Positions 2-57,344 of a DNA stretch of 64,000 nucleotides are shown piece by piece (within the stretch, counting starts at the first letter, position 1; each line of letters starts with the position of its first letter). Source of the DNA: a virus. Where the stretch lies: positions 9,660 to 73,659 of the IMG/VR virus record IMGVR_UViG_3300037333_000056; one strand, given 5' to 3'. The position numbers and the translations under genes are program-made. The notes under the pieces were generated by a model. It did no database searches, was not told where the DNA came from, and saw only the letters and a program-made list of their open reading frames with translations.

Positions 2-190
2 GGTCACGAACTACAAATAGAAATATCTGATTATCACAATATGTTGCCAGGTGGAGATTATGTGCTATCTAAAAATAAATATCTAAATACAGAAGGAGGA
101 TATAGCATTGGGGAAACATATACAATAGATGATGAACTACTTGCATGTGACTATCAATATTCTGAATTTGAAATATATTGGAGTGAATAA
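2..190 (+). CDS. 5'-truncated small hypothetical protein, paralog of 190..450
   Basis: Frame-2 ORF ...LLACDYQYSEFEIYWSE* resembles LLNCSYQHSEFIFYWRK of the next ORF; TAATG stop/start overlap at 188-192. Confidence 0.7.
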   Translation, partial: GHELQIEISDYHNMLPGGDYVLSKNKYLNTEGGYSIGETYTIDDELLACDYQYSEFEIYWSE

Positions 191-450
191 TGAATAAACA
201 GATTAGACTGAATATTAATACACAGTACTCTGCCTATATTTCGTCTACAAACGGTAACGAAAAGCAATATATTGACAAGTATAAAAATGAATTTAATCTT
301 ATTCATGAAAAATTTATAGGACTAGAATATGAGTGGTATGAATCAGAAAATACAACAACACGTATAAAAACATTACTTAACTGCTCATATCAACACTCAG
401 AATTTATATTTTATTGGAGAAAAGATGAAAAAGCAATCATGTTTGACTAA
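190..450 (+). CDS. MxKQ-family mini-protein
   Basis: Starts MNKQIRL; coupled to the upstream stop. Confidence 0.7.
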   Translation: MNKQIRLNINTQYSAYISSTNGNEKQYIDKYKNEFNLIHEKFIGLEYEWYESENTTTRIKTLLNCSYQHSEFIFYWRKDEKAIMFD

Positions 451-622
451 AGAATTTATTGATATAAATAACTATATGGATGGGTTTGAAAATATGGATA
501 ATGAACATTATGTTAATCATAAAGCATGTAGATACTGTAGCGATGAGAAAGACAAGACAATTACGATGATACAAAATAATATTACACCATACAAGAAGGA
601 CGATTGGATTAAAAATGGTTAA
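425..622 (+). CDS. MxKQ-family mini-protein
   Basis: MKKQSCL...ITPYKKDDWIKNG; GGAG upstream of ATG. Confidence 0.7.
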   Translation: MKKQSCLTKEFIDINNYMDGFENMDNEHYVNHKACRYCSDEKDKTITMIQNNITPYKKDDWIKNG

Positions 623-802
623 ACAGTTATCAACATCAAAAGATGCAGTTGAAATAAGTACTTTTGGAGTAGACAATGAAATGTCAAGAAACACAAGACA
701 TAAGGCAGTATATTATATTGGTGATAAAGAAGGTAAATTATTAACAATGACAAAACCATTAATTACACCATACAAGAAGGACGATTGGATTAAAAATGGT
801 TA
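581..802 (+). repeat. Perfect 41-bp direct repeat (581-621 and 762-802) spanning gene junctions
   Basis: ATTACACCATACAAGAAGGACGATTGGATTAAAAATGGTTA occurs twice, 181 bp apart; each copy holds a gene end plus the next ATG. Confidence 0.95.
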
Positions 803-803
803 G
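615..803 (+). CDS. MxKQ-family mini-protein
   Basis: MVKQLST...ITPYKKDDWIKNG. Confidence 0.7.
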   Translation: MVKQLSTSKDAVEISTFGVDNEMSRNTRHKAVYYIGDKEGKLLTMTKPLITPYKKDDWIKNG

Positions 804-999
804 GCAATTAAATGTAAGCAATAAACATCTAGTAGTTAATATAGAACTAGAAGATAGTGGACATATCTACTCAAAGCACAAATACTTAAGCTCTATATTT
901 GAAAAACAAACACTTATGGAATTTGTTTTATGTATCAGTAACAAGCTATGCTCTAATAAATATTGGAAAAAAGATATGGAACAAACGCAGAAGCACTAA
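796..999 (+). CDS. MxKQ-family mini-protein
   Basis: MVRQLNV...YWKKD. Confidence 0.65.
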   Translation: MVRQLNVSNKHLVVNIELEDSGHIYSKHKYLSSIFEKQTLMEFVLCISNKLCSNKYWKKDMEQTQKH

Positions 1000-1046
1000 C
1001 AACTACATATTATAATATTGTAGCAAACACAATAAAGGAGCAACGT

Positions 1047-3017
1047 ATGGATTTTAAATTAAGGCAGTATCAAGTAGAAGCTATTGATGCTATAGAGGGG
1101 AACATATTGTTCGGAGAAAAGAATATTATACTAAAGGCAACTACTTCATTTGGAAAGTCGTCAGTAATAGCAGGACTATGTGAACGCTTCAACGACAAAA
1201 GTATTTCTATTATTGTTAATATTGAGCCTCTAATAGACCAAATAGCTGTTTTCTTGAAACTACTTAATATAGACTATTCAATACTAAAGGCAGGGCGAGA
1301 ATCTGAATTTAGAGCGTCATCAAGAGTTCATCTTATCATGTCTCAAACATTATATGCAAGACTTGATAAGCTAGATATAAAATCTGATATATGTATCATA
1401 GATGAACGTCATATAGAGTATGATACAAAAAGAACCGGAGATGTGCTTAAACACATAACTCCTGACGTAATCATAGGAATGACTGCTACACCGTATAATC
1501 AAGCTGGTTTTGCACTAGCAAATGCAGAAATAGTTGAGACAGCAGATACTAACTGGTTAACAGAACAAGGGTATTTGTCTAAAGTAAACTACTATGTACC
1601 AAGATGGGCAGAAAAAGTTGACTATTCATCTGTTAGCAAGTCTGGCGTAGACTACAATCTATCATCACTAGACTCAATCATCAATTCAAAATCAAACATT
1701 AGCAAAATTGTAAAAGCAATGAACGATATGAAATGCAAAGATAAGAAAACGCTAGTGTTTTGTACGACAATAGACCAATGCAACTTAATTGCAGAAGCAC
1801 TTAGTAAGGACGGATATAGTGCGAAGGCTTATCATTCAGATAATTCAAAAAATGAAAATGAATATATACTTGATTCATTCAAGAACAATACTAAATTATT
1901 TGCTAATACAAGCGAAAATAAGACACTTTTTGATGAAAACGAACTATCTGTAGATAAAGACGCAGTTAAGTGCTTAATATCCGTTTCTAAGCTAACTACA
2001 GGGTTCTCTGTAAACGATATTGATATTGGAGTATCGCTTAGACCTAGTAAGGTGCGTTCGCTTGTAGAGCAGATTATAGGTAGAGTTAGAAGAACGTCAA
2101 ATTCTTTAGATGAGCTACTATCTAAGTATTCAAATGTTAAAGGCAAAAAAATTGCATTTGTATGCTCTGCGTACAATGAGAAAACAAAAATTAAAACTCA
2201 ACTAAAGCAACTTAAAGCATCACATATAGATGTATTTGAATACAAATCAGAACCAGATGAATACGATATAGTAGAGTGCAATGTTAGACCAAATAAGGAA
2301 TATGGTGAATATTTAGATCTAGCACAAAATATTAACACGCATGGTTTTCCTGAAGAAACTTACTATGCACCTGAATTTACTGGCTTTCACACTCAAGATA
2401 AGCAAAACCTTGAGGAAGCAACTAAAGACCTAAAAATGGACCATCTAATGGCTACAATAGGGTCAGATAAACCAGAGTGCATAACGAGAGATGGATACAA
2501 TATAAAAATAGAGCAGATAAAGAAAGATTCAACAAAATTAACTAATCTAACGATTAGACAACTATCAAACAAACTTGAAGTTGAGATGGATCCTACTACG
2601 ATTATATCTGTAACTTGTGTGCTGTTTGACAAGATGCATTGCTCTGGAGACTATGTAGATAAATTTGGGAAACAAGTACGTGGATATACTACTAATAAAG
2701 GAAAAGACGTAGTTAATTTTCTTAATCCTAGAAGCATTGGCTGGATAGCTGAAGACTGGGTAAAACAATTAGAACTAGAAAATGCATTCTATAAGCGAAA
2801 ATATATTAAGGCACTAAGAACCAGATGCAAAACTCTATTGCTGCAGAAAGGTTCAATATATGCAATAAAGTATTTCTTACAATTTCTACTAGAAGGAGAT
2901 GCAGAAGAAAAGAACAGGAACAATAGTGAGGAAGAAGAGGCTTCATATTCTGTTCAAATAGAAGACAGCAGTGGAAACATAGAAGTACATATAGACGATT
3001 GTGATATTCCATTTTAA
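1047..3017 (+). CDS. Superfamily 2 (DExH, Res/YejH-like) DNA helicase
   Basis: LRQYQ Q-motif, ATTSFGKS Walker A, IIDERH, GMTATP, QIIGRVRR; start moved to ATG 1047 after AAGGAG. Confidence 0.9.
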   Translation: MDFKLRQYQVEAIDAIEGNILFGEKNIILKATTSFGKSSVIAGLCERFNDKSISIIVNIEPLIDQIAVFLKLLNIDYSILKAGRESEFRASSRVHLIMSQTLYARLDKLDIKSDICIIDERHIEYDTKRTGDVLKHITPDVIIGMTATPYNQAGFALANAEIVETADTNWLTEQGYLSKVNYYVPRWAEKVDYSSVSKSGVDYNLSSLDSIINSKSNISKIVKAMNDMKCKDKKTLVFCTTIDQCNLIAEALSKDGYSAKAYHSDNSKNENEYILDSFKNNTKLFANTSENKTLFDENELSVDKDAVKCLISVSKLTTGFSVNDIDIGVSLRPSKVRSLVEQIIGRVRRTSNSLDELLSKYSNVKGKKIAFVCSAYNEKTKIKTQLKQLKASHIDVFEYKSEPDEYDIVECNVRPNKEYGEYLDLAQNINTHGFPEETYYAPEFTGFHTQDKQNLEEATKDLKMDHLMATIGSDKPECITRDGYNIKIEQIKKDSTKLTNLTIRQLSNKLEVEMDPTTIISVTCVLFDKMHCSGDYVDKFGKQVRGYTTNKGKDVVNFLNPRSIGWIAEDWVKQLELENAFYKRKYIKALRTRCKTLLLQKGSIYAIKYFLQFLLEGDAEEKNRNNSEEEEASYSVQIEDSSGNIEVHIDDCDIPF

Positions 3018-3036
3018 TATACAAAGGAAAGATACT

Positions 3037-3234
3037 ATGGTAAAACAATTTAGAGTTGTAGGCGATAGAACAAAAATGGGATACTACAATCCAGCACAGA
3101 TTATGTCTTATCTGCCTATAAAATACACATTCAGCACGGTATTGAATAGTGGCTCAAGTTCAAGAAAAATACTGTATATGGATAACAATAATGCTGATGA
3201 AAAAACTTTCTGGGAAAAGACGAAATATGTTTAA
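3037..3234 (+). CDS. MxKQ-family mini-protein
   Basis: AAAGGA RBS, MVKQFRV...KMGYY...ILYM...DEKTFWEK. Confidence 0.7.
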   Translation: MVKQFRVVGDRTKMGYYNPAQIMSYLPIKYTFSTVLNSGSSSRKILYMDNNNADEKTFWEKTKYV

Positions 3235-3481
3235 GCAATCTAAAATGATAAGTAATGGAGCTAAAATGGGATACTACTATCCATCTATCGATCCATTTTG
3301 TGATTCATCTACTGCTGTAGACTATATGAACATAAAATTTATATACAATAAAGGTATAAGATTTGAAGATGGAGGAATATTATATATGGAAAGTGAATGC
3401 ATATCGTCTACTCACCGTACTGACGAAAAAGCTTTTTGGATAAAGAGTAGGAAACACACTATCAATAAAGAATATGTGTAG
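3227..3481 (+). CDS. MxKQ-family mini-protein
   Basis: MFKQSKM...KMGYY...ILYM...DEKAFWIK; clear paralog of the previous ORF. Confidence 0.7.
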   Translation: MFKQSKMISNGAKMGYYYPSIDPFCDSSTAVDYMNIKFIYNKGIRFEDGGILYMESECISSTHRTDEKAFWIKSRKHTINKEYV

Positions 3482-3542
3482 CATAGACCGTATTATTTAA
3501 GCTAAAACAGTTAAATTAATATGCGTATGAAAACATAAACTG

Positions 3543-3648
3543 CTTCTGCGGTTGTGGAGGAGTAGACGTGACACGCATTTTCGAGCAAGCCGAAGGCTGT
3601 CGCAGAAAAGCGTATTGCGAAAGCTACGATAGCCACATAACGGAGAAG
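3543..3648 (+). other. GC-rich intergenic rod-like hairpin A (ncRNA or ssDNA signal)
   Basis: Nested pairings CTTCT/AGAAG, GTGG/CCAC, GTAG/CTAC, ACGC/GCGT, TTTT/AAAA; apex AGCC-GAA-GGCT. Confidence 0.6.
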
Positions 3649-3676
3649 AACAATTGAGCACCAAGAAAGGAATAAT

Positions 3677-3886
3677 ATGTTTAAGCAAATATCTCTAGGG
3701 AATGACAAAACAACAATGGGATCCATTTTTAAACGTAAATATATATCAATACAATTCAACAATCAGGATAGGCATATTTATGAAGAAAAATTTAGATTAA
3801 TAGACTTATTCCATACAACAATTGTAAGTTATGGAACAATAAGTTATTTATTCGATATAAACATATTCCAGAAAGAGATAGCATGA
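3677..3886 (+). CDS. MxKQ-family mini-protein
   Basis: AAAGGA RBS, MFKQISLGNDKTTMG. Confidence 0.7.
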   Translation: MFKQISLGNDKTTMGSIFKRKYISIQFNNQDRHIYEEKFRLIDLFHTTIVSYGTISYLFDINIFQKEIA

Positions 3887-4077
3887 GAAAACAACTAATG
3901 ATTATTGATGGGTATTGCAACATTGAAGGAATGAATCCTAAGACTTTAGTATCTACTTTCTCTCAAAGGAGAACGCCAATAAAACTCGATAATCTGCTGT
4001 ACATGTACAGGCTTATGATAATTCAAGAAAAGATGGTTATGATAGGGAAACTTACTATATTTAATAAAGATCAATAG
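3883..4077 (+). CDS. MxKQ-family mini-protein
   Basis: ATGA overlap, MRKQLMI...IFNKDQ. Confidence 0.65.
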   Translation: MRKQLMIIDGYCNIEGMNPKTLVSTFSQRRTPIKLDNLLYMYRLMIIQEKMVMIGKLTIFNKDQ

Positions 4078-4098
4078 TTTCTGGTTCTCATTTGTTAT

Positions 4099-4222
4099 GT
4101 AACTATTTGCAGTATCCTTCGGTAGCTGCTGTTTCTCGTTTTTGAGCTATGGCTATCGCCATACCCTCTGGGCACGCTCTTCAACTGCGATACAGGTCAA
4201 CCTTGAATACTACAATAGTTAC
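4099..4222 (-). other. Intergenic rod-like hairpin B, inverted homolog of A
   Basis: Closing stem GTAACTATT...AATAGTTAC, inner TATGGC/GCCATA; G-U pairs favour the minus strand. Confidence 0.6.
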
Positions 4223-4345
4223 GGACTAATTTTTATAGTATTATCTATATAATATATATAGCTCTATATAGAGAAAGTTATAAAAAATAGTACCTAAAAT
4301 GCTCATAAAGCACGGTGTACTGGGAGTTTGATAAGTTTTAAATAA

Positions 4346-4468
4346 TACTCACAGTATGAATATAGAAGTTGAGTAATATATGCAGACTGTGAGTACTTTT
4401 ATAGCTACAAATTGTATTCAGTATTGAGTATAATTTTAAGCTATATGTAATATTAAATTGTATATAAT
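4346..4468 (+). promoter_or_regulatory. 18-bp inverted repeat (4346-4363 / 4378-4395), TGAGTA repeats and sigma70-like -10 (TATAAT 4463-4468) upstream of RepL-like gene
   Basis: TACTCACAGTATGAATAT and ATATGCAGACTGTGAGTA are 16/18 complementary. Confidence 0.6.
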
Positions 4469-4573
4469 TAGGGATATTAAAAGACACACCATGGTTTTTA
4501 GGTTGGCTCCTACCATAGTGCGAAGAAAGTTTTTAATTATGAACACATCATACAAACACAATGGGAACATAAC

Positions 4574-5452
4574 ATGACTGAATTATACAATGAACACAAT
4601 GAAATAGAGCTTATCTCAGAGACAACTTTAACATCAGATAGCGGACTTGCTATAGCAAAAATAGAATCAACAACTTTACAAAGAATAAAAAAAGGAAAAA
4701 GAGCAATGATGACACCAATGATAGCAAAATACGCAGTTAAAGGAGTAATAAATAGCAACAAATTTATAGGAGAAAAAGGGCTTAAAGAAATAATGAATAA
4801 GTATGATAGCTCCGCATTTAACGTTTTTATAGAGGAAACTATATGTGGACTAATGAATGATTACGGATGTATAATTTCTGATAGTTCAGTTACGAAACTC
4901 ATATATAGTAAAGCTAAAGTATCTAAAAGCTCTTTTGATAGATACATGAAGCTATTACGGGACAATAATGTGATTCGTAAGGTGAATAATAAGCTTATAG
5001 TGATTAACCCATATCAGCTATACAAAAATTGTACGATTTCAGGAGAACATCTATGGCAACTTCAGGCTAACTGGGAACTAGAGAAGGTAATGACACACTG
5101 GTTCGAGATAGATGACGAAGCAAGACTTGATGTGCTACGATCTAAAGCAGAGCTTGATAAGGCTTGGGCAGAAGAAAAGCTAGAAAAGATTAAGAAGAGT
5201 AATGCAGAGGTTGCATCTATCTATGAAGAACCGGAGAAGTATGCTACAGCTATAGAGGCTTTTACAGATTATAATGTAGAGAAAGGATTAATAGTTACAA
5301 CTTTTGCAGACTATCTTAGTGATGACACTGGTTCTAGACACTTTAGATCGTGGTATTTAAGCGAAAAAAATACTACTCATAGGCCAAAGCTACAATATGA
5401 CTATAAAGACCGTAGAGCGTATGCTGATGCGTTTATAGAGATATCGAAATGA
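4574..5452 (+). CDS. RepL-like winged-helix replication/DNA-binding protein
   Basis: KAKVSKSSFDRYMKLLRDNNVIRKVNNKLIVINPY fits the wHTH + INP pattern of RepL-type proteins. Confidence 0.6.
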   Translation: MTELYNEHNEIELISETTLTSDSGLAIAKIESTTLQRIKKGKRAMMTPMIAKYAVKGVINSNKFIGEKGLKEIMNKYDSSAFNVFIEETICGLMNDYGCIISDSSVTKLIYSKAKVSKSSFDRYMKLLRDNNVIRKVNNKLIVINPYQLYKNCTISGEHLWQLQANWELEKVMTHWFEIDDEARLDVLRSKAELDKAWAEEKLEKIKKSNAEVASIYEEPEKYATAIEAFTDYNVEKGLIVTTFADYLSDDTGSRHFRSWYLSEKNTTHRPKLQYDYKDRRAYADAFIEISK

Positions 5453-5646
5453 TAAAGCAACTAATTATATTAGCAGAAAGAAAAAAAAGAATAAAAGGAA
5501 TATATAGCTTCAATATAAAATATATTGATAGAAATAGCATAAATAGCTTAGGTGCAATATTAACTATGTATGACGACATACACACATCAGATGGTGAATA
5601 TGAATACCTTGGACAAAAAGGATTTTTTGATAAAAAAAATGGATAA
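5449..5646 (+). CDS. MxKQ-family mini-protein
   Basis: MIKQLII...RIKG...FFDKKNG. Confidence 0.7.
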   Translation: MIKQLIILAERKKRIKGIYSFNIKYIDRNSINSLGAILTMYDDIHTSDGEYEYLGQKGFFDKKNG

Positions 5647-5652
5647 ATTATA

Positions 5653-5838
5653 ATGATAAAGCAACTAAAGATTATAAACATAAATAGTGAAGTGCATAGA
5701 ATAAAAGGAATGCTTGGTGATATAAATATGAAAATTACACGAAAAAAGAATGTATTGCCAGCATTAATTGGATCATGCAGCAGTATTGTTACAGCAAACA
5801 AGATGTATTGGAACAGAAAATACTGGAATAAAAGGTAA
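5653..5838 (+). CDS. MxKQ-family mini-protein
   Basis: MIKQLKI...RIKG...YWNKR. Confidence 0.7.
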   Translation: MIKQLKIININSEVHRIKGMLGDINMKITRKKNVLPALIGSCSSIVTANKMYWNRKYWNKR

Positions 5839-5849
5839 AGGAATAATTT

Positions 5850-6329
5850 ATGAAAAAAAACAACACAACAGAATGGAATAAGGCAATTGAACTATTATCT
5901 AATGTAGCAGAATACGAAGCATCAAGCATTGAATATGAGGTAGCTGACACAACAACAAATTCATGGGAAGAGTTTAAAGAAAAATGTAAAAAAGATGGAT
6001 ATATTACTGTATCTAAAGATGAATGTGATAACTCTATATACGATAGCCCTATAGTTAACAGAATGGCACGTGTATGGCACGATAAGTTACATTTGAATCA
6101 TAACCTTAGTTTTTCATTAGAAGACGAAATAAAGGTAGCTAAATATCAACAATTAGATATTGATAATTATAGAATGATGCACTTTAGTGAATACTCTCAA
6201 TCTGTAGTAGATTTAGCAAAAAAAATCATATATATTGATGTAGCAGAACAACTAAAATACTATTATGAGAATAATGAATATGTTGAGAACCAAAAGGCAT
6301 TCGTACTTAATATTATATACAATAAGTAG
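5850..6329 (+). CDS. Hypothetical protein
   Basis: 159-aa ORF with AAAGGA RBS. Confidence 0.75.
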   Translation: MKKNNTTEWNKAIELLSNVAEYEASSIEYEVADTTTNSWEEFKEKCKKDGYITVSKDECDNSIYDSPIVNRMARVWHDKLHLNHNLSFSLEDEIKVAKYQQLDIDNYRMMHFSEYSQSVVDLAKKIIYIDVAEQLKYYYENNEYVENQKAFVLNIIYNK

Positions 6330-6334
6330 ATACC

Positions 6335-6556
6335 GTGTTAAAGCAATTCAAGATGGCTGTAGAAAATAATAGCAGAGTATTAGCCGAAGAATTCAGTAGT
6401 AACTACTTGGAAAGAAAGTATATATATAGTCCAGTTGTATACAAAGAGACAAAGGAGTGCAATAATGTAATTGGGCAATCATTCATAATGCATTCATGCC
6501 ACGAGTACAATGACTATTCTTCATCTAAATCAGCATGGATAAAAGGAAATAATTAA
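6335..6556 (+). CDS. MxKQ-family mini-protein (GTG start)
   Basis: MLKQFKM...AWIKGNN. Confidence 0.6.
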   Translation: MLKQFKMAVENNSRVLAEEFSSNYLERKYIYSPVVYKETKECNNVIGQSFIMHSCHEYNDYSSSKSAWIKGNN

Positions 6557-6618
6557 TGACTAAGCAATTAACATTAGTGAAGGATAATAAATACACTAAT
6601 AATAAAATTGAAAAATAA
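6556..6618 (+). pseudogene. Truncated MxKQ-family remnant (20 aa)
   Basis: TAATG overlap, AAAGGA RBS, MTKQLTLVKDNKYTNNKIEK*. Confidence 0.5.
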
Positions 6619-6652: not shown

Positions 6653-6970
6653 ATGGAATTAACAGAAAAACAATACGGTAATCTAAATAGAAGATTTATG
6701 GAGGCAAAGATGGAATTAGACAAAGCTACAGAAGCATTTAATGCAATTAAGGATGAAGTAAAAGATGCAGCATCTGGTTCTGAACTTGAAATGGAAAACG
6801 TTACAGTATTCTATTCAAGTAGAACTACAGTGAATTATAAAAAATTCATTGAGGAAAATAAGCTTAATATTCCAGACGAATATGTAACTATAAAAGATGT
6901 TGAGACTGTACGATATGTTAGTCCACAAGAAGAACCTGTTGGGATGATTAGCATAAATGGAGATGAATAA
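6653..6970 (+). CDS. Hypothetical coiled-coil protein
   Basis: AAGGAG RBS, 105 aa. Confidence 0.8.
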   Translation: MELTEKQYGNLNRRFMEAKMELDKATEAFNAIKDEVKDAASGSELEMENVTVFYSSRTTVNYKKFIEENKLNIPDEYVTIKDVETVRYVSPQEEPVGMISINGDE

Positions 6971-7191
6971 TGAGTGATAAAAAAACATTCTCAGTAAAGC
7001 TTGAATTTGACAAGGTGCTTACTATGCTTCTAGATGTAGAAGTTAAAGCAAGCACAAGAGAGAAAGCAATTAGAATTGCAATAGAAAATTACAAGAATAA
7101 TATGTATGCAGATTCAGACATGTATGAAGCAGATGATGCATTTGTTACAATGAATATAAACAGCAGCGACTGGATTGTTGATGAAGAATAG
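6970..7191 (+). CDS. Hypothetical protein
   Basis: Coupled ORF with VEVKASTREKAI motif common in small phage proteins. Confidence 0.75.
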   Translation: MSDKKTFSVKLEFDKVLTMLLDVEVKASTREKAIRIAIENYKNNMYADSDMYEADDAFVTMNINSSDWIVDEE

Positions 7192-7193
7192 AT

Positions 7194-7394
7194 ATGTTTA
7201 CATATAGAGACAGAACTTGGTGCAATGAAAAAACATGTACTAATACGAAATGCAATAGATTACTTACAGATAAAGAAAAAGCGAAAGCAACAAGAGAATG
7301 GACAGGATCGCCTATATATTCTCTTGGAGAGCTTAGAGACACAGAACTATGTATTGGATACACAACAAAGGAATACAATGAAAACAATAAATAA
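7194..7394 (+). CDS. Small Cys-containing hypothetical protein
   Basis: YRDRTWC...C...C pattern, 66 aa. Confidence 0.6.
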   Translation: MFTYRDRTWCNEKTCTNTKCNRLLTDKEKAKATREWTGSPIYSLGELRDTELCIGYTTKEYNENNK

Positions 7395-8268
7395 GAATGG
7401 AATAGAATACGAGTTACCAAGCGTTACACTATTGAATGTTGCTGGATTAGGAATATCTGAATTTGCTGGGAGAACAGCATACAATAGCTTTGACAAATCA
7501 GAAAACAGTGCAATAAAAGACCTAGATGTACTATTGACAGAAAACGAAATTAAAGGCGTAGATTTAGATGTTTCTATTAAGAAAGTAAATGCAGTTGAAC
7601 ATTCAAACTTGCTAGATAGTTTAGCATGGGTGCATCATCATCATAGCGTGCTAGAGCAATGTGAGCTCTGGTTCTCAGTAAAAGGTACAAGCAGAGGAGT
7701 ACTGCAGGAGCATAGCAGGCACAGACATCAGGAGCTTACAGTCCAATCGACAAGATATACAATGTCATCTGTAATCAATGCGTTTATTGCATCGTACACA
7801 AGATACAATAGCACTAGCACAATAACAGCAAAAGGAATGTTTAATAAACTTGTAATTGAATTAAATATGTTTGTTATTGCAGATAAATATATGATTGAAA
7901 TAGAGTCAAACTCAATGTATGACAAATTATTGTATCAGCTGAGAGTATTAGGAGAAGATAAATTTATTGAACTTGCAACATCAAAAAACATGAGGGAAAA
8001 CGGAAGTCTAGATCTTGAAACTACGATTGATATATTTGATGCACTTGAGCAATCAAAACAGGTTAGAAATATTGGAGACAACTTCAAACATATAGTAACA
8101 GACAACTGGAAGGTTGATATGGTATTTAAGATGAATCTTAGGTCACTAAAAAACTACTTGACATTACGAGACTCAGGATCAGCTTATTTCCTAATGAAAG
8201 AATTAGCTATTGCAATCAAAGAAGCTACTCCTAAAAACTACTTAGATTTAATTATTAAACAAAAGTAG
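7378..8268 (+). CDS. thyX: Flavin-dependent thymidylate synthase
   Basis: HHSVLE, SRGVLQEHSRHRHQELTVQSTRY (RHRx7S), NLRSLKNYLTLR; start at ATG 7378 after AAAGGA. Confidence 0.9.
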   Translation: MKTINKNGIEYELPSVTLLNVAGLGISEFAGRTAYNSFDKSENSAIKDLDVLLTENEIKGVDLDVSIKKVNAVEHSNLLDSLAWVHHHHSVLEQCELWFSVKGTSRGVLQEHSRHRHQELTVQSTRYTMSSVINAFIASYTRYNSTSTITAKGMFNKLVIELNMFVIADKYMIEIESNSMYDKLLYQLRVLGEDKFIELATSKNMRENGSLDLETTIDIFDALEQSKQVRNIGDNFKHIVTDNWKVDMVFKMNLRSLKNYLTLRDSGSAYFLMKELAIAIKEATPKNYLDLIIKQK

Positions 8269-56951: not shown

Positions 56952-57344
56952 TTATATTTTATCTATGATTGTGTCACTACTTGTTGTGAACACAGAATAG
57001 TCTTTTTTGTCTGCATCTATTTCCCATATGTATGAATTCATGCAGTGATTTTTTCCAAAGATAAAATCTATAACACTTGAGAACATGCAAGAATTACTAG
57101 AACCCGTTTTGCACAGAAAATATGTATAGCTACTAATTGTATAATTTTCTTTTTCATATATTGCTGCACCACCAGCCTGGTCAAGGCCGATAGCACACAC
57201 ATTTAGATACTTTGATATTTTAGAGTAGATATCATTATCTGATTTATTATATATCTTATACAAAATAGTTACAACAACAACAATAGGAAACAGTACAACT
57301 ACAAGAATATACGCTACAAGAAGTAGCATTAATTGCTTAAGCAT
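56952..57344 (-). CDS. Membrane-anchored hypothetical protein
   Basis: N-terminal TM segment; AIGLDQ.G......TISS...IDFIFGKNHC. Confidence 0.65.
   Translation of the reverse strand: MLKQLMLLLVAYILVVVLFPIVVVVTILYKIYNKSDNDIYSKISKYLNVCAIGLDQAGGAAIYEKENYTISSYTYFLCKTGSSNSCMFSSVIDFIFGKNHCMNSYIWEIDADKKDYSVFTTSSDTIIDKI

Follow-up and report, generated by a model that had tools for sequence, protein, structure and literature searches.

The hyperplastic regions of T4-type phages carry small, fast-turnover open reading frames (ORFs) of unknown function in fixed slots between core genes, and short conserved sequences at the gene boundaries appear as recombination points; the element shared by these PeSL cassettes is a non-coding promoter plus stem-loop, and the ORFs that it flanks are unrelated (Arbiol et al. 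2010, PMC2839356; Comeau et al. 2014, PMC4122927). The internal proteins IPI, IPII and IPIII of phage T4 are diverse small proteins that share a capsid-targeting sequence, a leader of about 10 residues which ends in a (L/I)-x-E site for the prohead protease and acts in head assembly (PMC3012670). The small early proteins of coliphage N4, such as gp8, are a further point of comparison. Here we describe a family of small genes in a stretch of 64,000 nucleotides (nt), called the window below, which corresponds to bases 9660-73659 of the 73,659-bp uncultured viral record IMGVR_UViG_3300037333_000056, with an estimated record completeness of 88%. The predicted products share a short N-terminal motif, M-x-K-Q in most members (the tag), and a short C-terminal motif, and their middles are hypervariable.

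Like the T4-type cassettes, the genes of this MxKQ family are small, change fast and occupy fixed slots between core genes, and short conserved sequences at their boundaries appear as points of recombination. Unlike those cassettes, the shared element lies inside the coding sequence (codons 1-7 plus the C-terminal motif) and the ORFs form one family; a search for a promoter plus stem-loop of the PeSL type beside the genes found no terminator-like sites, and fewer promoter-like sites than in shuffled sequences. The likeness to IPI, IPII and IPIII lies in diverse small proteins joined by a short N-terminal sequence, whereas the MxKQ family lacks the cleavage site, has no detected prohead protease and holds an early/middle genomic position. 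As with the early proteins of N4, the products are small, early, belong to an N4-type phage and presumably act on the host, but the two sets show no sequence similarity, and the N4 proteins do not form a paralog family with common ends. The family is new and its kind is known, namely tandemly expanded, fast-evolving small accessory proteins in a plastic phage region; the adjacent paralogs on one strand, the coding signal and the restriction to one lineage that mark this kind are all found here. The most notable features are the motif at both ends, the different N-terminal mark of a sister lineage and the duplication pattern centred on the tag.

Members and their shared ends

Sixteen ORFs of the genome begin with M-x-K/R-Q, fifteen of them full-length (61-88 amino acids, aa) and one a 20-aa remnant, and all sixteen lie on the + strand between genome positions 4230 and 16277. 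Coordinates are window positions unless 'genome' is stated. Twelve starts fall inside the window, at 190, 425, 615, 796, 3037, 3227, 3677, 3883, 5449, 5653, 6335 (GTG) and 6556. A first-pass annotation, made by a model from the letters of the window, had listed twelve such ORFs, and all were present with the starts and the first five residues it gave, eleven of them 61-86 aa and one 20 aa long; the 5'-truncated paralog with which it opened the window is the end of an 88-aa member. Another three members begin before the window, namely MTKQF (genome 4230), MTKQI (genome 5308) and MKKQL (genome 5780), and the same region has two degenerate candidates (genome 5108 and 6007). The expanded family with a short shared N-terminal motif and hypervariable middles is thus supported, and it is larger than first described. 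The members in the window are as follows.

2..190 (+): 3' part of the 88-aa member MLKQL...YQYSEFEIYWSE, which starts at genome 9583, 76 nt before the window
190..450 (+): member MNKQI, 86 aa, ending FYWRKDEKAIMFD; body paralog of the member at 2-190 (E = 1e-7)
425..622 (+): member MKKQS, 65 aa, ending DDWIKNG
615..803 (+): member MVKQL, 62 aa, ending DDWIKNG; body paralog of 425-622 (E = 3e-16)
796..999 (+): member MVRQL, 67 aa, ending KYWKKDMEQTQKH; codon 2 (GTT) as in 615-803, body unrelated
3037..3234 (+): member MVKQF, 65 aa, with KMGYY, ending FWEKTKYV
3227..3481 (+): member MFKQS, 84 aa, with KMGYYY, ending FWIKSRKHTINKEYV; body paralog of 3037-3234 (E = 2e-8)
3677..3886 (+): member MFKQI, 69 aa, ending IFQKEIA
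3883..4077 (+): member MRKQL, 64 aa, ending IFNKDQ
5449..5646 (+): member MIKQL, 65 aa, with RIKG, ending GFFDKKNG
5653..5838 (+): member MIKQL, 61 aa, with RIKG, ending KYWNKR; its first 16 nt are those of 5449
6335..6556 (+): member (GTG)LKQF, 73 aa, ending SAWIKGNN
6556..6618 (+): 20-aa remnant MTKQLTLVKDNKYTNNKIEK

The start motif is longer than first described and reads M-x-[K/R]-Q-[L/I/F]-x-[hydrophobic]. Position 4 is Gln in 16/16 and position 3 is Lys in all but one member, which has Arg; position 5 is Leu, Ile or Phe in 14/16 and position 7 is hydrophobic in 15/16. Turn-type residues are usual at positions 9-11, and an acidic residue stands at position 9-10 in ten of the sixteen, with no fixed L/I-x-E. 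The end motif is aromatic-[W/F]-x-K, 4-14 residues before the stop. The statement that most members end in W/F-x-K holds for 14 of the 15 full-length members aligned, the remaining one ending Y-W-S-E. Similarity between bodies was significant by BLASTP in three neighbour pairs only (E = 3e-16, 2e-8 and 1e-7), as expected from the earlier claim that neighbours are most alike, and all other pairs have the two ends in common and nothing else. The isoelectric point is at least 8.5 in 10 of the 15 full-length members. The pattern ATGNNNAARCAR occurs 24 times in the window compared with 5.55 +/- 2.48 in shuffled sequences, so that the tag is commoner than chance, and 13 of the 24 occurrences fall within the first 6.6 kb; the longer start pattern gave 13 forward matches and its reversed control none. 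Two members are present in the ESM Atlas with poor models (pLDDT, the predicted local distance difference test, 0.35 and 0.40), and the feature matches to beta-sandwich domains found there (scores at most 0.92, few shared features) are a lead only.

The sole gene start outside the array that bears the motif is MLKQL, at the head of a 130-aa membrane protein (56952-57344, - strand) which has a strongly hydrophobic N-terminal segment and adjoins the portal gene; a relationship to the family is improbable. Among public gene calls, P0071 (3227-3481) and P0067 (6335-6556) begin at an inner Met and so miss the MxKQ start, and P0073 runs through the TGA stop of the member at genome 5780, probably because a code-4 gene model was used on DNA of low GC content.

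Coding signal and level of constraint

A frame-specific codon model was trained on the 28 longest genes of this phage. The annotated frame scored best in 17/17 ORFs (all 15 full-length members plus both degenerate candidates) and in 0/55 spurious ORFs of similar length, a contrast flattered by the drawing of the spurious ORFs from inside the training genes. Eight of the twelve starts in the window overlap the upstream stop by 1-26 nt and three more lie within 19 nt after it, which agrees with the earlier description of the genes as mostly translationally coupled. The family is real, and by these signals it is almost certainly coding.

Synonymous positions of the tag vary. Lys at position 3 is encoded by 6 AAA and 9 AAG, with one AGG for Arg (genome-wide Lys 65:35), Gln at position 4 by 13 CAA and 3 CAG (genome-wide Gln 69:31), and position 5 uses 8 different codons. 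No conservation across members was found in the 30 nt upstream of the starts and nothing is kept outside codons 1-5, and the motif without exception occupies codons 3-5, counted in frame from a start codon. The synonymous variation, the unconserved upstream DNA and the fixed codon position together show that the constraint is on the peptide. The comparison of synonymous sites proposed in the first-pass annotation therefore came out for protein rather than DNA constraint; the constraint acts on the peptide, or at most on about 9 bases of mRNA, and there is no wider DNA element. The DNA motif of the tag is more likely a by-product of selection on the peptide than its cause.

The TGG of the end motif lies 10-11 nt before the next ATG in only 4/15 members, in six no further start follows within 80 nt, and five have Phe (TTY) instead of Trp, where no Shine-Dalgarno role is possible because TTY cannot act as such a site. 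The candidate explanation that W-x-K serves solely as the Shine-Dalgarno site of the next gene fails in most members and was ruled out. The C-terminal motif is therefore a protein feature as well, with a second use as ribosome-binding site in some members.

Searches for homologues

Scans of ten members against Pfam and PHROGs returned noise only, and profile searches of the PDB with the family gave no match. A profile search of 5.8 billion proteins recovered only the members of this phage itself, and all 13 matches of an exhaustive HMMER search of 1.84 billion representatives also came from this phage. There was no match in a DNA similarity search against GenBank phages or in a single-protein scan of viral contigs, and a two-tag DNA pattern scan of viral contigs revealed no further array among the matches listed. 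A tblastn search of GenBank phages with the helicase encoded within the array found nothing but relatives below 30% identity. Across the searches and synteny comparisons made, no cassette is held in common with any other genome.

Equivalent slots in related phages

Related contigs were reached through relatives of the embedded superfamily 2 (SF2) helicase. The nearest, L046 and L048, have helicases 61% and 57% identical to that of this phage and share its core genes, in unchanged order. Synteny with L046, L048 and L009 shows that the core genes are conserved and the mini-genes are not, variable ORFs lying between the core genes. A search for the motif in relatives had been proposed, and its outcome was divided: L046 and L048 contained no MxKQ ORFs, but they hold eleven differently tagged mini-ORFs of 52-60 aa in slots equivalent to those of this phage.

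L046:9254-10759; L048:3508-3690 and 6656-7680: mini-ORFs of L046 and L048

The shared slots are the interval between nuclease and helicase, the position 3' of the helicase and that beside a 105-aa gene. All eleven mini-ORFs start with M-[I/M/K/V]-N-I-hydrophobic-x-[T/I], and ten of them have a Trp plus a basic residue in the last 4-7 residues (8 W-x-K, 2 W-R-T-T). For three orthologous pairs between L046 and L048 the ratio of non-synonymous to synonymous substitution rates (dN/dS) was 0.18-0.38, compared with 0.05-0.10 for flanking core genes, and these mini-ORFs are therefore coding genes under purifying selection, with a weaker constraint than on the core. Their family is confined to a narrow clade. 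In an hhalign comparison of the MxKQ family with the L046/L048 family only the last 14 columns matched, with a probability of 0.9%, and the hidden Markov model of either family gave no score above shuffled sequences on the other.

A more distant relative, L011 (IMGVR_UViG_3300048629_000034; 113 kb, helicase 37% identical), carries at L011:6072-13021 about ten paralogs of 113-152 aa around the helicase, all ending in ...[F/I]-x-L-[H/Y]-D-T-N; in some of them the start of the next gene (MTQ) overlaps their end, and a Pfam search of these paralogs found no family. The helicase of L048 (L048:3677-6637) is 986 aa long, and its protein cluster (P0003) carries the intein domain PF14890.

Duplication centred on the tag

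Codon 2 is identical in four neighbour pairs (ACA/ACA, GTT/GTT, TTT/TTT and ATA/ATA), compared with 0.5 expected (permutation P = 3e-4). The bodies of these four pairs are not significantly similar (E at least 1 for three and 0.1 for the fourth), and codon 2 is not the same in any of the three pairs that have similar bodies. The member at 3677-3886 shares 15 nt (AATATGTTTAAGCAA) without mismatch with the start region of the member at 3227. The triplets 425/615/796 and 3037/3227/3677 both follow the order tag1-bodyA, tag2-bodyA', tag2-bodyC, as would be expected if each duplicated unit extended from shortly behind a start to shortly behind the following one, with the breakpoints of unequal recombination in the shared start. 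A perfect repeat was found in the first of these stretches.

581..621 (+): perfect 41-bp repeat, copy 1; copy 2 at 762-802

The repeat takes in the final 13 codons (ITPYKKDDWIKNG) of one gene and runs 7 nt into its successor, and it sits within an 88-nt stretch of just 75% identity, which hints at a recent duplication or a conversion event. The repeat and the staggered order suggest that recombination takes place at the tag.

Genome context

By its genes the phage is a divergent N4-like podovirus. Its portal protein is 41% identical to that of Klebsiella phage Pylas, the N4-type major head, primase and helicase families are present, and a 2800-aa ORF matches the virion RNA polymerase family. 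Coding strand and skew switch at about 28 kb. The mini-genes lie on the + strand, on the replication side among genes for a PD-(D/E)XK nuclease, the helicase, ThyX, ribonucleotide reductase and primase, and more than 40 kb separates them from the head genes, which are on the - strand. The genes other than members that stand within the array are as follows.

1047..3017 (+): SF2 helicase (ResIII + Helicase_C), ending ...DIPF; conserved anchor gene, non-member
4574..5452 (+): 292-aa protein with a sub-threshold RepL/winged-helix match; context gene
5850..6329 (+): 159-aa protein, phrog_7806, function unknown; anchor gene, non-member, 64% identity in relatives

The first-pass annotation had the mini-genes interleaved around a helicase gene and a RepL gene. 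The helicase is a genuine SF2 enzyme, and the label 'RepL' has behind it only a Pfam match, to 45 residues of a winged helix, that stays below threshold (E = 0.029; 14.3 bits, cut-off 20.3). A PHROGs search with the 292-aa protein gave no match, and its gene is missing from the nearest relatives in the synteny comparison. The C-terminus of the helicase (2995-3017) is an acidic ...DIPF tail like the tip of bacterial SSB, and its P655 and F656 are nearly invariant over 15 relatives (alignment A1).

No gene lies in the 190 nt 3' of the member at 3227-3481. GC-rich non-coding islands at 3535-3655 (+) and 4090-4230 (-) bracket the two mini-genes at 3677-4077; they fold much better than shuffled sequences, with z = -3.4 for the + strand island and z = -5.6 for the - strand island. 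An Rfam search of both islands had no match, and Rfam and tRNA scans of the array region found nothing. Before the window, at the array's end of the genome, lies the gene for a Pfam-confirmed NAMPT, and ORFs resembling nicotinamide mononucleotide (NMN) adenylyltransferase and Nudix proteins were noticed there by eye from the translations only (genome G000:C1:60-4206, the stretch that also holds NAMPT). A set of NAMPT, NMN adenylyltransferase and Nudix genes is one which we take to resemble known counter-defence genes that restore nicotinamide adenine dinucleotide (NAD), and the NAD-salvage genes at this end of the genome may possibly be such a set.

Discussion

The explanation that we favour, and hold to be somewhat probable, is that these genes are one phage-specific, fast-diverging family of translated small accessory proteins, with ends selected as peptides, duplication centred on the tag and a role in host takeover or counter-defence. 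The proteins, of 61-88 aa and mostly basic, are encoded in the early/middle arm on the replication side, and selection on the peptide retains both ends and leaves the middle free to vary. The ends would most likely form the common scaffold or contact surface of one small domain, with the middle giving specificity, and the likely role would be that of a diversified set for host takeover or counter-defence. The array would grow by tandem duplication through unequal recombination with breakpoints in the shared start, and selection on the peptide would incidentally supply the shared codons as microhomology that promotes expansion, as a few cases suggest. Members would be gained and lost in the fixed slots between core genes (nuclease, helicase, 159-aa gene and 105-aa gene).

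Several points weigh against this explanation. Translation of the members is predicted from sequence signals, and the spurious ORFs set beside them were a favourable choice. Nothing links any member to a target or a defence system. AlphaFold2 gave a mean pLDDT of 53 on the family alignment and 51 on that of the relatives, values too low to inform on a common fold. Homology of the MxKQ and L046/L048 families is plausible by position, size and C-terminal motif, but no sequence method links the two. The staggered duplication pattern is based on only two or three triplets.

It is possible, though unlikely, that the N-terminal motif is instead an address or docking peptide for one shared partner, for example a protein of the phage or the host, a modifying enzyme, or a protease that sets when the members are removed; all of them would thus be led to one place or fate. 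Residues K/R3 and Q4 are invariant in 16/16 despite unrelated bodies, and the tag differs between genomes, being MxKQ in this phage and M-I-N-I-hydrophobic-x-T in L046/L048, where the different form would reflect co-evolution with the partner of that lineage; the distant L011 array around the helicase is marked at the C-terminus by ...L-H-D-T-N. However, no candidate reader was identified, no enzyme gene consistently adjoins the arrays, and a starting motif of seven residues might equally be the first strand of a fold. A broader form of the same idea, which we rate lower still, is that lineage-specific address peptides (MxKQ, M-I-N-I-hydrophobic-x-T and perhaps the LHDTN of L011) mark libraries of otherwise unrelated mini-proteins for one reader, the same codons giving the microhomology for expansion; such a reader, of the phage or the host, might position the mini-proteins, modify them or set the time of their removal. 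A precursor array like those of ribosomally synthesized and post-translationally modified peptides was also considered and rejected: the shared N-terminus is 5-7 residues and not a leader of about 15 or more, and there is no maturase among the neighbours of the array, which are the nuclease, the helicase, the winged-helix protein and ThyX. That codons 2-5 act as an element of translation start or early elongation, an A-rich unstructured 'ramp' that allows coupled mini-genes with weak Shine-Dalgarno sequences to be well expressed and in which the peptide has no role, seems improbable. Codons 3-5 can reportedly alter protein yield by orders of magnitude, a result attributed to Verma et al. 2019 (Nat Commun); several members, with poor Shine-Dalgarno sequences, rely on coupling, and AAG is mildly over-used at codon 3 (9/15, P = 0.04). 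Yet, apart from one gene start, the motif is not used elsewhere in this phage, not even in long genes that are presumably expressed at a high level, and a ramp does not explain why it is peculiar to this family; position 3 has changed just once, conservatively from K to R (AGG), and the hydrophobic positions 5 and 7 are maintained through many codons.

The first-pass annotation had offered a DNA junction motif that drives cassette shuffling as an alternative source of the conserved start; in this reading the motif would be kept for the shuffling and the peptide would be incidental. The perfect 41-bp repeat over two stop/start junctions, the starts of 15-16 nt identical between neighbours with unrelated bodies and the staggered codon-2 pattern of duplication along the array agree with it, but only about 9 specified bases are common to the whole family, synonymous sites vary as they do genome-wide, conservation is confined to codons 1-5, the in-frame position is fixed, and with no cassette common to other genomes there is no sign of exchange from a shared pool, all of which makes this quite improbable as the cause of the motif. 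Clamp-binding motifs (QL[SD]LF, QLxLxL) may sit at the N-terminus of a protein, as in Hda, and Q-[L/I/F]-x-[L/I/M/V] might be a peptide that brings the mini-domains to the host beta clamp or blocks it: the residue after the invariant Gln is Leu, Ile or Phe in 14/16, and the third after it is hydrophobic in 15/16. Small staphylococcal phage polypeptides are said to bind the clamp (a finding credited to Belley et al. 2006), and N4 gp8 reportedly targets and inhibits the host clamp loader (credited to Yano & Rothman-Denes 2011). We nevertheless regard this as very improbable; the fifth consensus position, the fourth after Gln, is hydrophobic in only 8/16, the tag of the sister lineage in the equivalent slots has no Gln, and sixteen clamp binders in one 74-kb genome would be unprecedented. 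The analogy drawn at first with a T4-style capsid-targeting sequence, by which the mini-proteins would be packed into the head and injected, has as its sole support the formal likeness to the T4 internal proteins (PMC3012670) and is hardly credible: the mini-genes stand with the replication genes on the early/middle strand, a conserved (L/I)-x-E cleavage site is missing from the tag, the HK97-type S78 prohead protease (PF04586) gave no match with its control working, and the tag of the nearest relatives differs though the head genes are conserved. The T4-type protease (PF03420) also gave no match, but its control was silent too, in a record that is 88% complete.

Only the discovery of a common reader of the tag would make these genes change current concepts. 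Functions in host takeover and counter-defence come mainly from small early phage proteins, most of which are orphans that cannot be grouped; sixteen orphans of one genome joined by two short motifs give a handle for studying them as a set. The staggered duplication is a concrete and testable mode of growth for such arrays, and the differently tagged set of the sister phages in equivalent slots offers a natural experiment on whether the role of the tag lies in fold, address or translation.

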